A stretch of DNA of 64,000 nucleotides from the NCBI RefSeq assembly GCF_054482595.1, contig NZ_CM137008.1. One strand, 5' to 3'. The position numbers are program-made. Of the stretch, positions 35,601 to 44,600 are shown piece after piece; within the stretch, counting starts at the first letter, position 1, and each line of letters starts with the position of its first letter.

Positions 35601-38600
35601 TTACGTGGCGCTGGCGTGGGCGGTCTTTAAAATCTTCCGCATTCCGGTAAATCAGTGGACGCTGGCGACGGCGGCGCTGGGAGGCGTGTTTCTGGTGAGT
35701 GGTTTGATTTTGTTGATGAACTACAACCACCCTTACACTTTTACCGCGCAAAAGGCAGTGATAGCGATCCCTATCACGCCACAGGTGACGGGAATTGTTA
35801 CTGAAGTCACTGACAAGAATAATCAGCTTATTCAAAAGGGCGAGGTGCTTTTTAAGCTCGACCCGGTTCGTTACCAGGCGCGAGTTGACAGACTTCAGGC
35901 TGACCTGATGACGGCGACGCATAATATAAAAACGCTGCGCGCCCAGCTCACTGAAGCGCAGGCCAACACCACCCAGGTTTCAGCGGAGCGCGACCGTCTG
36001 TTTAAAAATTATCAACGTTACCTGAAAGGCAGCCAGGCGGCGGTGAATCCGTTCTCGGAACGTGACATCGACGATGCGCGGCAAAATTTCCTCGCGCAGG
36101 ATGCGTTAGTGAAAGGCTCGGTGGCGGAGCAGGCGCAGATCCAGAGTCAGCTCGACAGTATGGTCAACGGCGAGCAATCGCAGATTGTGAGCTTAAGAGC
36201 GCAACTTACTGAAGCAAAATATAATCTTGAGCAGACTGTCATTCGCGCACCAAGCAATGGCTACGTCACTCAGGTACTGATCCGCCCAGGCACATACGCA
36301 GCTGCCTTGCCGTTGCGTCCGGTGATGGTTTTCATCCCCGAGCAAAAACGGCAAATTGTCGCCCAATTTCGGCAAAACTCGCTGTTACGTCTGAAACCTG
36401 GCGATGATGCGGAAGTGGTGTTTAACGCGCTACCTGGGCAGGTGTTCCACGGCAAACTGACCAGTATTTTACCTGTCGTGCCAGGCGGTTCTTATCAGGC
36501 GCAGGGGGTATTGCAATCATTAACGGTCGTGCCCGGCACGGACGGTGTGCTGGGAACCATTGAACTGGACCCTAACGATGATATCGATGCCTTACCCGAC
36601 GGCATTTACGCCCAGGTGGCAGTTTACTCCGACCATTTCAGCCATGTTTCGGTGATGCGAAAAGTGCTGCTAAGAATGACCAGCTGGATGCATTATCTTT
36701 ATTTGGATCATTGAGGGGGAAGGGGGAGATTATGGAACTTTGCTCCCTGTAAGGACTAATTATTTTTGCATATTATTTCATCGGCTGTGATGATTTTTCG
36801 TTAATATCCATTATGTTAAGAAGTTCGGGATGAGTGTGAACTCATTGGATTTTTTATCCGTCTTGATCTGCCGAAGGATCAGACTATACATTGTCGAGAT
36901 CGCAATGATGATATGAGTTGTTCCTCCTGCGACGGCTCTAATCAAAAAAGAGCAGGAGTGCTTTTCCATCTATTGCGATGATGGCTTTATTATCTGAAGG
37001 ATGACAGTCACATTTAAAAAATATTTAATCTATAGATCACAATGTAGGGTCATGGAATATATGTATACAACTATTTTCTTCTTCACTTTTAATTATCGTG
37101 TTCATTATAAAACCAAGTTAAAAAAACTCCTGGAGAGTGACTTATTAATATATTTTTAAATAAAATTAAGTTATTATTCATCGATGCATTTTATAGAATC
37201 ATCAATGGCCATAATAGTACTATTAACTCTCCACTTTATATTTTTATCATCACTACAAATATTAACTGAATTTATATCAATGATTTTTTTATTCTTATCT
37301 TTTGTTTTATTTACTGTTTCAATGCAATCAGCGGCAAGTTGGAGTGGATTTAGATTTTTCAGATATGGTCTTATGATCTTTCCCTTACTTAATAAATAGC
37401 ATGTATAGGATTCGGAAAGTCCAGCATCTATTTTGTACCTCATTATATTAGATAAGGATGTGAGAAATTCCTTGTTATCATTCGCAGCCATATATGCCAG
37501 TCCGAGTTCAGCCTCTGCGGCCTTACAGGCAAAATAGCTAAGTGAACACGCTTTTCGTCCCTCTTTAGTACTGGCTGATATTAGTGCCCATAATATTGCT
37601 TTGTCTGCCAAATCTAACTCTCTCTGAAATTGTCTTGCAGTAACTGCACTCGCAGAAATAGAGAAAAAAAATACAATTGTTAATAACTTTGCCATATTTT
37701 TTAGTCCGTAACTGTTAATGTGCTATCTGGCTCTGAAAATATTAACTCATTTAATTTTTGCATGTCATTAGATGAACCAGTTATACAACCCTCGGAACAG
37801 AATCGAGGTCCTAAAGACGGACCGAAAGCGTTTAAACAACTATGTGTTAAAAATCCATCACGATTATATGTTTCTGTATTTGCTGACGGTACTAAACGTA
37901 TACCATTAGGTTTTCTATTGGTTGCTCCAGGACCATTAACATTCCAGCTCCATACCCCTTGAGGTATTGGACCTCTATTTTGTAAGTGTGTACAACCAGG
38001 ATTATTTTTACATTGCATATTATTACCATTATTACCAGAGGCGACAGGAATAGTAAGCACATCATAAGAGTTATCATCATTTTGCGTATCTGAAACGCAT
38101 GAAAGCATACTTAAAGTTATGCTGTATAAACAGGTCGCTAATCCCAACGGGTCAATATCAGTTATCGGATTCAACGGATACTGATAAAAATTCCATCCCC
38201 CTTTCAGCCCAATCGGATCCTGAGTGATATATCGCCCCTGCAGCGGGTCATAATAGCGGTGGCGGTTGTAATACAGGCCGGACTCCTCATCATACTGCTG
38301 CCCCGGCAGGCGGATAAGCTGCTGCAGCTGATGCGGGTTCTCTTCATTCAGCAGGTTGCCCCACTCATCGTATTCTGCGCACCATTCTGTAGCACCTTCC
38401 GTGCTGATAAGCGCCAGCGGCAGGCCGCGATGGTCGCAGTGGTACAGGTGGATTTTTCGCGCCGGCGTGTACACCGGGTCCATCTGGTTTTGCATCTGCG
38501 CCACCGTCAGGCCGCACGATGCCAGCCAGCGGCGGCTTTCCTCACTCACCCGGTCAGCCAGGATTTCACTTTCCAGCCGGTCGAGCATCTGCACCGTGCC

Positions 38601-41600: not shown

Positions 41601-44600
41601 ATCGCCATAATATACTTACTATCAATCCTTACGCCAATAATGTCTGATACAGTCCCTATAAATATTAGAGCAATAAAGAATACTATGCCTGTTGGAAAAC
41701 ATATTACCATCATTCCATAAGACATGAGACTAATTAACTCGCTCACATCACGAGTGGAGTCTAATAGTGAAAGTCTATGCATGGAAAAGAATAGTATTAA
41801 AAGCGATAAAGCCAGCCATATAGCTCTGAATAAAAAAATAATATATTTCATTACATCACTCCGGTGAATACAAATCTAATAAAACGTCCAATGTTATTTC
41901 CGGAGCACTTCATCTTACATGTTTCTAAAGAATCATTAGACCAGTCTTGGCAGTTTTTAAATAGCCCTAAATTTATAGGTGTGAATATATCAGGCAATAC
42001 AGAATAACGCGGCCTTACCTCTTTAAACTTCCCTTTTAAACAGTTCTCCACACAACTATTATCGGTTTCAACGAGGTCACAACGGCCAGCAGCTTCTTTT
42101 GTATCATTACTTGCTTTACCTGGCCCCCATAGACCATCTCCTTTTGATTCTCCCCGTTGGTCTTGGCCACCACAAGTATAGTCCCCTTTACCATCTGGGA
42201 CACAAAGATATTGATGATAGAACGGATTCCCCCATATATCTGGACCGCTTCTTTCACCAGTTCCGCCCATTGAATGCAGTGGCTTAATGCATTTTAGTGT
42301 TTCTAATCCTAATGGATCTATATTTGAGATCGGATTCAACGGATACTGATAAAAATTCCATCCCCCCTTCAGCCCAATCGGATCCTGAGTGATATACCGC
42401 CCCTGCAGCGGGTCATAATAGCGGTGGCGGTTGTAATACAGGCCGGACTCCTCATCATACTGCTGCCCCGGCAGCCGGATAAGCTGCTGCAGCTGATGCG
42501 GGTTCTCTTCATTCAGCAGGTTGCCCCATTCATCATATTCTGCGCACCACGCTGTTGCCCCTTCCGTGCTGATGAGCGCCAGCGGCAGGCCGCGATGGTC
42601 GCAGTGGTACAGGTGGATTTTTCGCGCCGGCGTGTACACCGGGTCCATCTGGTTTTGCATCTGCTCCACGGTCAGGCCGCACGATGCCAGCCAGCGGCGG
42701 CTTTCCTCACTCACCCGGTCAGCCAGGATTTCACTTTCCAGCCGGTCGAGCATCTGCACCAGCACCGGCGGGAACACCACACTGCCACCGTCTTCGCCGC
42801 CGGACTGCTGAAGCGCATCCGCCAGGCTGCGGCGCTGCGTTCTGGCCAGTTCACCGGTGGCAGTTTCAACTCTGATGAGTGGTGTGAAGCTCCCCGGCTG
42901 ATAAATCGTCTGGATGCGGCTCCTGTCGTTCTGTATCGTGGTCAGCCGGTCGCCGTCCCAGCCGTACCAGGTCACTTGCGGTTTCCGTGACAGCGACATC
43001 CAGCCCGTCAGGTCCCGTTCACGTCGCCATACCCGTTTTGCCACCCTGCGGCCCAGCGGGTCGTAAAGATAGCGACTTTCGACCAGCGGCTCTGCATATT
43101 GTGTCCGCGTGTAGTGCACCAGCCGGTGCTGACTGTCGTAATGGTACCGGTGGGTGCGCTCATCATCCGTACGGATACCCCCTTCCGGGATGAGGTCGGT
43201 TTTCTCCGTCAGCCTGCCGTAACGGTCATACCGGTAAAGATAGTGCGCGTCACGGGCGATACGGTTATCCGGCCACATGCTGAGGGTGCTGTCCGGGTGC
43301 AGCTCCGGGTCGGGCAGGCGGTTGCCCGCCGGGTCCGTGGCATACGGGATGCGGATATCCAGATTCGCTGCGGTGGTGTGAACGCCGGTCAGCCTGCCGG
43401 TGGTGCTGTAGCTGTAACTCCGGGTCTGGCGCGGGCTGCTGATGCGGATGAGTTCGCCGTTGTCGTTCCAGGTGTAATCGCGGTCATACTGCAGGCTGTT
43501 CAGGTGCTGACGCTGTAACTGCCCGGCAGGGGTGTAAGCGGTGGTGAGTTCATAACGACCGAAGCTGCGCAGCGTTTCCCGGTGCAGGCGGTCGCGGGTG
43601 AAATCCACCAGCGGTGTGTCGCCGAGCTTCATGCCTGCCAGCCAGCCGCTGCCGTAGGTCAGCCATTCCACGGCGGGCAGGCTGTCCGGTATACAGCGGT
43701 TCGCCAGTCCCTGCGCGTTGTACGCATGTCTGGTCTCATGCTGCCAGAGCAGTGCTTCCGTCTGCGGGTGATGCACCGTCTGGCGCTCACCGGTCAGGCG
43801 GCCTTTCTCATCATACCTGTAATGCACCGCTACCCGGTGCCCTTCGCTGATATGGCTGATGTCTGTCAGCCAGCCACGTTCGTCATACCGCCACCGCTCT
43901 GCGGTTTCACCCTTCACGGTGCGGTGCGTGAGGCGGTCTGCTTCGTCATAGTGCCAGTGGGTGACCAGACCCTCATCCTCGCTGCGGATAAGTTTGCCGG
44001 TCAGGTCGTGGTGATAACGCTGTGTGCGGCCGTCAAAGCCGGTTTCCTGTATCAGCCGGTCAAGTACATCGTAACGGAAGGTGGTGTGGCTGCCGTTTTC
44101 ACTGGTCAGGCGGATGACCCGTCCGGCAGCATCGTATTCCATACTGCGCGTCAGCCCGCCCTGCGTGGTACGGACGGCCTTTCCCCACGCATCGTACTGT
44201 GTCCCGTTTCTGCTGCCGTCCGGGGCAATGACGGCGGTCAGGTCACCGGCGATGTTGTATTCATACCGCGTTTCATGGCCCTGCGTGTCTTTCACGGCAA
44301 TTAACTGTCCACGGCTGTCGTATGCGCGGTACTGGCTCAGCCCTTCCTCGCGGTGCACCGCCGTCATCTGCCCGAAGCGGTCATGGTCATAACGGGTCTG
44401 GTAGCCGGAACAGTCGGTGAAGCTCAGCAACTGGCCGTAACGGCTCCACGTCATGGTTTTCCGGCTGCCGGTGGCATCGTCCGTTGCGCAGGGGAGGTCA
44501 CTGTGTGGATTATCATAACGGTAGCGGGTGATATCGCCGTCAGGGGCGGTTTCCTGAATCAGACGGCCGGATTCATCATATTCCCGGCGCAATTCCAGCC

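Follow-up and report, generated by a model that had tools for sequence, protein, structure and literature searches.

An Rhs element at the rhsA site of an Escherichia coli chromosome carries one full-length Rhs gene and two predicted orphan toxin/immunity modules joined by direct core repeats

Rhs loci are a textbook example of polymorphic toxin diversification, and arrays of orphan tips within them record past toxin replacements. Here we describe such an array in a stretch of 64,000 nucleotides from contig NZ_CM137008.1 (NCBI RefSeq assembly GCF_054482595.1), referred to below as the window. The Rhs locus lies between yibH/yibI and yibF/selA, which, according to the annotation of matching genomes, is the classical rhsA site of the Escherichia coli chromosome, and over its 9.6 kb it matches the E. 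coli XH990 chromosome, as well as several other complete genomes, with 100% identity. Apart from this locus, the window contains ordinary chromosomal genes of E. coli (waa, tdh/kbl, lld, mtl, selAB, aldB and avtA). At this site one full-length rhs gene, called the main gene here, is followed by two orphans, in each of which a 5'-truncated core is fused in frame to a different C-terminal tip. All three core copies have the same orientation on the minus strand, so that "followed by" means toward lower coordinates. The features of the locus, with names from the Prokaryotic Genome Annotation Pipeline (PGAP) where it gives them, are these:

41851-46035, minus: main rhs gene, a full-length open reading frame (ORF) of 1394 residues with the core at residues 1-1244 ending in DPLGL; named rhsC by PGAP
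41851-42303, minus: tip of the main gene, 150 residues, of the K-12 RhsC type (tip C), colinear with K-12 rhsC-ybfB
42304-43350, minus: first repeat copy, the 3' core of the main gene; the entire stretch is common to orphan 1, and 42304-42784 is common to orphan 2
42304-42318 (main gene), 40433-40447 (orphan 1) and 38139-38153 (orphan 2), all minus: DPLGL codons
41525-41851, minus: ybfB-like gene, an ORF of 108 residues; "protein YbfB" in PGAP
39938-41479, minus: orphan 1, a 5'-truncated core (40433-41479) fused in frame to a 164-residue tip of the K-12 RhsB type (tip B)
39583-39966, minus: putative yhhH-like immunity gene of 127 residues, overlapping the end of orphan 1; Pfam Imm-NTF2-2 at E=3.4e-26, YhhH in PGAP
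38636-39478, minus: yibA pseudogene (HEAT-repeat protein), "internal stop" in PGAP, colinear with K-12 yibA-yibJ
37701-38618, minus: orphan 2, a 5'-truncated core (38139-38618) fused in frame to a Tlde1-like tip
37701-38138, minus: the Tlde1-like (L,D-transpeptidase-like) tip, intact, 145 residues; Pfam Tlde1_dom at E=1e-6
37174-37695, minus: putative Imm57-family immunity gene of 173 residues; Pfam Imm57 at E=1.9e-47, Imm57 in PGAP

The locus has the hallmarks of the RHS element family, namely the core, the YD repeats, the DPxGL motif and a variable tip, while linkage to a type VI secretion system (T6SS) is not seen within the window. The main protein matches the NCBIfam RHS_core equivalog NF041261 with 2627.5 bits (cut-off 2000) over residues 1-1244, the end of the model falling exactly at DPLGL, and it matches YD_repeat_2x at E=2.6e-39. 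DUF6531 is present at its N-terminus, where the PAAR motif gave only insignificant matches (E=0.084 and 1.1). Neither vgrG nor hcp nor any other T6SS gene is annotated anywhere within the 64 kb, and we therefore infer, rather than observe, that these toxins are deployed. No family matched tip C or YbfB in the Pfam and NCBIfam searches, and NCBIfam likewise gave no match for the other two putative immunity proteins, YhhH and Imm57. The YbfB-like protein is very hydrophobic, with hydrophobic segments resembling those of a membrane protein, and its gene is the presumed immunity gene for tip C by virtue of its position only. The main gene had been called rhsA in a first-pass annotation of the window, a name that is correct for the chromosomal position but not for the expressed tip, which is of the RhsC type.

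Both orphans retain recognizable tips and their own small downstream genes. The tip of orphan 1 matches Pfam DUF4329 (E=3.5e-39), which, like Tlde1, is a toxin-associated family, and the orphan is recorded by PGAP as "rhsB, incomplete, missing N-terminus". For orphan 2, only the core fragment is annotated by PGAP, as a partial gene, and its K-12 equivalent is the decayed yibS/yibW. Tlde1a is a T6SS effector with an altered LD-transpeptidase fold (PMC9638812), and peptidoglycan in the periplasm is the probable target of the Tlde1-like tip. The Imm57 protein begins with a hydrophobic, signal-peptide-like segment (residues 1-20), and an exported Imm57 would fit such a periplasmic target. At codons 8-11 of the Imm57 gene (~37664-37671, minus), the window has a homopolymer of eight T that keeps the 173-residue frame intact, while ES5, PE164, PI24 and K-12 MG1655 have seven T and a broken frame; accordingly, PGAP marks Imm57 as "frameshifted" in the first three, and K-12 annotates only the 111-residue YibV from an internal ATG. 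This variation between seven and eight T could represent slipped-strand on/off switching of an exported immunity protein. It is worth adding that PE164 has the Tlde1 tip on an rhs gene of full length and yet carries the frame-breaking seven-T allele of Imm57.

Between the two orphans lies yibA, which in K-12 stands directly after the RhsA tip. When translated, the window copy is interrupted once, by a nonsense codon at residue 215, an internal stop that the annotation of ES5 also records; the gene has no toxin tip before it. Given both the missing tip and the nonsense codon, yibA in the window is a leftover of an earlier, displaced module. In K-12, the segment after rhsB-yhhH that is annotated yrhC can be aligned with the 5' part of yibA in the window, so yrhC would seem to be a yibA fragment. 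The same alignment is a hint that the K-12 rhsB locus took its 3' end from an rhsA-type locus.

The three modules are tied together by their core repeats. A repeat search over positions 34000-50000 of the window returned one direct-repeat family with three members, starting at 38139, 40433 and 42304 and spaced by 2294 and 1871 nucleotides. In blastn alignments, the main copy (42325-43350) and orphan 1 (40454-41479) are 96.5% identical over 1026 nucleotides with zero gaps; the main copy (42303-42784) and orphan 2 (38138-38618) are 94.6% identical over 481-482 nucleotides, with a single gap at the extreme 5' end; and orphans 1 and 2 are 93.8% identical. The E-value is 0 for all three pairs, far beyond chance, and the longest exact tracts are 143 nucleotides (main gene and orphan 1) and 90 nucleotides (main gene and orphan 2). 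TIGR03696, the Rhs-associated core domain, matches all three copies and ends at DPLGL in each. What lies downstream of the main gene are 5'-truncated core fragments in the same orientation and nearly identical to the main 3' core, which is the composition of an orphan array.

At the DPLGL boundaries the base composition changes sharply. The 300 nucleotides upstream of DPLGL have a GC fraction of 0.54-0.56 and the tips one of 0.37-0.41; in 200-nucleotide windows, the cores reach 0.60-0.665 and the tip and immunity DNA falls to 0.29-0.38. The fall is least abrupt at the main tip (0.41). The three tips are unrelated to one another. These data bear out most of what the first-pass annotation had proposed, that is, a near-identical core present three times (all pairs well above the 80% identity at which it had drawn its line), a common orientation, a GC-rich to AT-rich change at every DPLGL, and a different tip with its own small gene after each copy. 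The coordinates it gave were right to within ~25 nucleotides, with slightly generous 5' limits: the homology starts at 41479 rather than 41505 in orphan 1 and at ~38618 rather than 38640 in orphan 2. For the main gene it had described a repeat from ~42307 to 42990 "and beyond", and the part shared with orphan 1 in fact reaches 43350.

A triple repeat of this kind might in principle be an artefact of assembly, in which paralogous rhs loci were collapsed or wrongly joined, since multi-copy Rhs cores, found at a median of 6 places per genome, can confuse assemblers. We regard this as having next to no chance of being correct. The full 9.6-kb locus is present at 99.9-100% identity in 13 listed complete genomes, the order of tip C, ybfB, orphan core and tip B is found in 24-25 complete genomes from different laboratories and hosts, and the core copies are distinguishable from one another, differing pairwise at 27 to 44 positions.

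Comparison with K-12 shows that the locus is a mosaic of segments from the K-12 rhsC, rhsB and rhsA loci, with every joint inside the core repeats. The colinear segments are as follows:

40485-46153: K-12 rhsC-ybfB and the core fragment of the orphan ybfO
39128-41479: K-12 rhsB 3' core, B tip, yhhH and yrhC, a stretch that takes in orphan 1
38166-39530: K-12 yibA and the yibJ core
36700-38315: K-12 yibS/yibW/yibV through yibH, at 92.8%

The repeat unit that includes tip C and ybfB is 1871 bp long both in the window and in the rhsC to ybfO repeat of K-12, and the junction of spacer and core is identical in the two. Other E. coli have simpler arrangements at the rhsA site. In ES5 and its relatives, the B tip is on a full-length rhs gene; yhhH, the yibA pseudogene, the Tlde1 orphan and Imm57 come after it, and what this locus lacks is exactly the 1871-bp unit of tip C, ybfB and repeated core. 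In PE164, an rhs gene of 4179 nucleotides is fused straight to the Tlde1 tip, Imm57 comes next, and the interval from yibF to yibH holds nothing more. Each of the three possible states of the expressed tip is represented at the rhsA site in one E. coli or another, and the B tip is carried on full-length genes elsewhere, both on K-12 rhsB and on the ES5 gene at the rhsA site.

The components of the array are much more widespread than the array itself. In a survey of 5,426 complete genomes, the three-module arrangement was seen in 24-25, while tip C with ybfB was found in 2777 genomes, tip B with yhhH in 3007, and sequence like the Tlde1 tip and Imm57 in 3696, mostly as the K-12-like version of 90-95% identity. 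A B tip at the rhsA site without the C module recurs throughout the sampled ranking of matching genomes. A chimeric query of core and Tlde1 tip matched 1952 genomes at a coverage of at least 80%, a figure that is not a count of fused genes, as nearby pieces are joined in it; true fusions are the single-piece matches only, namely PE164, E105, F2_81 and PI24, of which PE164 and PI24 were inspected and the rhs gene of PI24 is itself frameshifted.

Taken together, these observations lead us to conclude, with considerable confidence, that the locus is an Rhs element at the rhsA position, consisting of one full-length polymorphic-toxin gene and two orphan rhs-CT/immunity modules, that it would have been formed by serial C-terminal displacement, and that its repeats would remain substrates for recombination. 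The displacement model, which invokes homologous recombination, was put forward for loci with a GC-rich core, tips of lower GC and direct repeats of core fragments downstream (Jackson 2009, PMC2935791). Applied to the window by genome comparison, it would mean that recombination within the conserved 3' core brought in successive cassettes, each comprising a core fragment, a new tip and an immunity gene, and each pushing the prior tip downstream. Because the three-module form is rare, its components are common, and the B tip recurs without the C module, serial displacement with the C module arriving last would be the most economical history. The Tlde1/Imm57 module, the most distal one, would be the oldest; a K-12-type A tip would once have been present, of which the partner gene yibA alone survives, as a pseudogene; the B tip and yhhH would have arrived next; and the 1871-bp cassette of C tip and ybfB would have come last. 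A recent insertion of the C module is suggested, without being established, by the rarity of the three-module form and the recurrence of the B tip without that module.

The core sequences themselves may carry a trace of this last step. In a fixed gapless register over the 1047-nucleotide repeat, the main and orphan 1 cores differ at 44 sites. At eight of them, in positions 321-509, the main copy agrees with ES5 and orphan 1 with K-12 rhsB; at eleven others, in positions 681-952, the main copy agrees with K-12 rhsB and orphan 1 with ES5. By this pattern the two cores are reciprocal chimeras of an ES5-like and a K-12-rhsB-like haplotype, both of which occur naturally as continuous sequences, and the breakpoints of both fall in the same interval, positions 509-681. 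Reciprocal chimeras with a common breakpoint interval are what single-crossover integration of a circular cassette predicts, a mode of insertion that Jackson et al. proposed on circumstantial evidence (PMC2935791). It is conceivable, though we would not yet favor it, that the window preserves sequence evidence for the insertion of the C cassette through such a circular intermediate. The alternative is a linear double crossover whose breakpoints happen to coincide, and the chance of both falling in one such interval is estimated at ~0.2-0.3.

As to the source of the cassette, a transfer from rhsC to the rhsA site of one and the same genome was considered, and downgraded. Each of the 24 carrier genomes has tip C in a single copy, confined to the locus at the rhsA site. 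In XH990, the rhsC locus (record 3304385-3309150, next to ybfA) has a full-length rhs gene fused to the ybfO tip and followed by ybfC, with neither tip C nor ybfB; taking one 1871-bp unit of tip C, ybfB and repeated core out of the K-12 rhsC locus gives this arrangement. Since the ES5-like relatives, which have the presumed recipient architecture, lack tip C anywhere in the genome, an external donor is no less likely than such a transfer. Downstream of the XH990 rhsC locus we also noted a fragmentary gene for an "NTF2 fold immunity protein" and an ISEc1 transposase.

Given serial displacement as the preferred history, the question is what the repeats could do now. In Salmonella, recombination between a main rhs gene and an orphan was shown experimentally, with 522 bp shared at 95% identity, and the recombinants outcompeted their ancestor (Koskiniemi 2014, PMC3967940). 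By their length and similarity, the repeats in the window should be sufficient for RecA-dependent recombination, for which Salmonella offers the only experimental precedent, and a crossover would attach an orphan tip to the presumed delivery-competent core. Since the core alignments are gapless, the products would be in frame. A crossover between the main gene and orphan 1 would delete 1871 bp and yield an Rhs protein of 1408 residues with the DUF4329 tip, at the cost of tip C and ybfB; a crossover between the main gene and orphan 2 would delete 4165 bp and yield a protein of 1389 residues with the Tlde1 tip, with the additional loss of tip B, yhhH and yibA.

The first-pass annotation had proposed that homologous recombination could swap the expressed toxin while retaining all immunity genes. 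The swapping agrees with the anatomy of the locus, and both predicted fusions exist at the same site in other strains (the B tip in ES5, the Tlde1 tip in PE164). However, the retention of all immunity genes does not follow, as a simple crossover between direct repeats deletes the intervening ones, and ES5 and PE164 lack exactly those genes. In either crossover the intervening tips and immunity genes would be lost unless the locus had first been duplicated, whereas the orphan immunity genes downstream of the crossover would remain in place. Retention thus holds for the downstream genes or after a duplication but fails for the intervening genes. Indeed, Koskiniemi et al. noted that the simple event deletes the main immunity gene and invoked a prior duplication of the locus (PMC3967940).

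Several points weigh against this view of the locus. The evidence is comparative only, and no recombination event was observed directly. The architectures of ES5 and PE164 could be ancestral states just as well as products of deletion, and ES5, at ~3% divergence from the window across the core, is not a recent derivative of the window allele. With no T6SS or vgrG gene in the window and insignificant PAAR matches, secretion of the main Rhs protein is a prediction. A promoter scan of the locus was uninformative, with 19 promoter-like sites against 14.1 +/- 3.2 expected in shuffled sequence; terminator-like sites numbered 9 against 9.5 expected. Finally, decay is visible in the stop codon of yibA and in the frameshifts of Imm57 in other strains, and a purely historical array would look the same.

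This last point leads to the possibility that the array is a fossil record of past displacement, in which the orphans are silent and are kept, at most, for immunity against toxin-deploying neighbors, and switching is rare and not selected. The first 900 to 1100 codons are missing from the orphans, which PGAP calls pseudogenes, and dissociated tips were thought likely to be functionally silent by Jackson et al. (PMC2935791). The yibA nonsense codon, the broken Imm57 frame in ES5, PE164, PI24 and K-12, and the decayed K-12 equivalents of orphan 2 would all be expected of such a relic. In the window, however, the ORFs of the two orphan tips and of their immunity genes are uninterrupted, the core copies have kept 94-96.5% identity and remain in frame, full-length genes of other strains carry these same tips, and switching was selected in Salmonella (PMC3967940). 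We therefore consider a purely fossil array rather unlikely, and it should be stressed that it is compatible with, and not exclusive of, an array formed by displacement whose repeats could still recombine.

A different role for the orphans would be expression inside the cell, from promoters and start codons in the retained core or tip, as modules resembling type II toxin-antitoxin systems. Internal expression was shown for the main and orphan rhs-CT of Salmonella, and the authors report that the P2 promoter is also present upstream of E. coli Rhs toxins (PMC7043789). In the window, there is an in-frame ATG at 41407 within orphan 1. Of the sigma-70-like matches in the locus, the best one (TTGATA-16-GATAAT, 10/12, 41625-41598, minus) lies inside the 3' end of ybfB, ~120 nucleotides upstream of the orphan 1 core, a match to the consensus only. 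This scenario is nevertheless improbable to us, given that promoter-like sites are not enriched over shuffled sequence and that the Tlde1-like tip, judging from work on Tlde1a (PMC9638812), probably acts in the periplasm, so that its expression in the cytoplasm would not be obviously toxic.

Elsewhere in the window, a gene for a YadA-family trimeric autotransporter adhesin lies in pieces at 25445-29388 on the minus strand:

25445-27951, minus: adhesin fragment, frameshifted and without its N-terminus
27957-28661, minus: separate ORF with an ESPR signal peptide
28705-29388, minus: hypothetical gene with an internal stop

Two paralogous pairs of genes for a DUF3302 protein and an HlyD-family protein, yibI-yibH (35213-36714) and yiaW-yiaV (53791-55256), flank the Rhs/sel region. 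Between yiaT and ysaA/avtA, positions 57221-61785 hold genes for a GH127 glycoside hydrolase, an MFS transporter and an AraC regulator, and then a 141-nucleotide C-terminal fragment of a gene for an IclR-family regulator. K-12 presumably has the yiaJ-sgb region at this position, and the stretch in the window may be a replacement island.

With an orphan array, a strain has toxins and immunities in store for competing with other strains, and the locus described here is a clean natural example that could serve for teaching or for measuring switching rates. Its exact allele is already present in at least 24 RefSeq genomes, and the arrangement, its formation by recombination and the switching between main and orphan genes have all been published (Jackson 2009; Koskiniemi 2014), so that no new principle is involved.

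The closest known system is the RhsA element of K-12 (rhsA-yibA-yibJ-yibG-yibS-yibW-yibV), which has the same flanks (yibF, yibH/yibI), a full-length clade I core that is ~97% identical, and likewise downstream orphan core fragments with tips, yibA and an Imm57/PF15596 gene. In contrast to K-12, the expressed tip in the window is of the RhsC type with ybfB rather than the A tip, and there is an extra orphan with the RhsB tip and yhhH. Furthermore, the window lacks the K-12 yibJ tip and yibG, its yibA is a pseudogene that no tip precedes, and its Tlde1 tip and Imm57 are intact where those of K-12 have decayed. The rhs-main/rhs-CT-orphan locus of Salmonella Typhimurium LT2 also combines a main gene with a downstream orphan, sharing ~0.5 kb at 95% (PMC3967940). 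However, the LT2 locus has a single orphan and adjoins a T6SS on Salmonella pathogenicity island 6 (PMC7043789), whereas the window has two orphans, a longer repeat (1026 nucleotides) and no T6SS genes in 64 kb; moreover, recombination was shown for LT2 and is a prediction for the window.

The arrays of Jackson et al. (PMC2935791) show the same GC contrast, the same variable-length repeats of core fragments with different tips, and the same tips at different loci and in different strains. Clade I loci in that study were generally without dissociated tips, whereas the clade I locus in the window has two. The orphan cdiA-CT/cdiI and rhs-CT/rhsI pairs of Poole 2011 (PMC3150448) likewise lie downstream of a full-length gene with part of the upstream coding sequence kept, and, as here, full-length genes of other bacteria are found with the orphan tips fused to them; the window has only the Rhs type, with no CdiA/CdiB. 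Set against these systems, the locus is new only mildly, as a clade I locus with two dissociated tips and for the reciprocal-chimera signature of its presumed last insertion.

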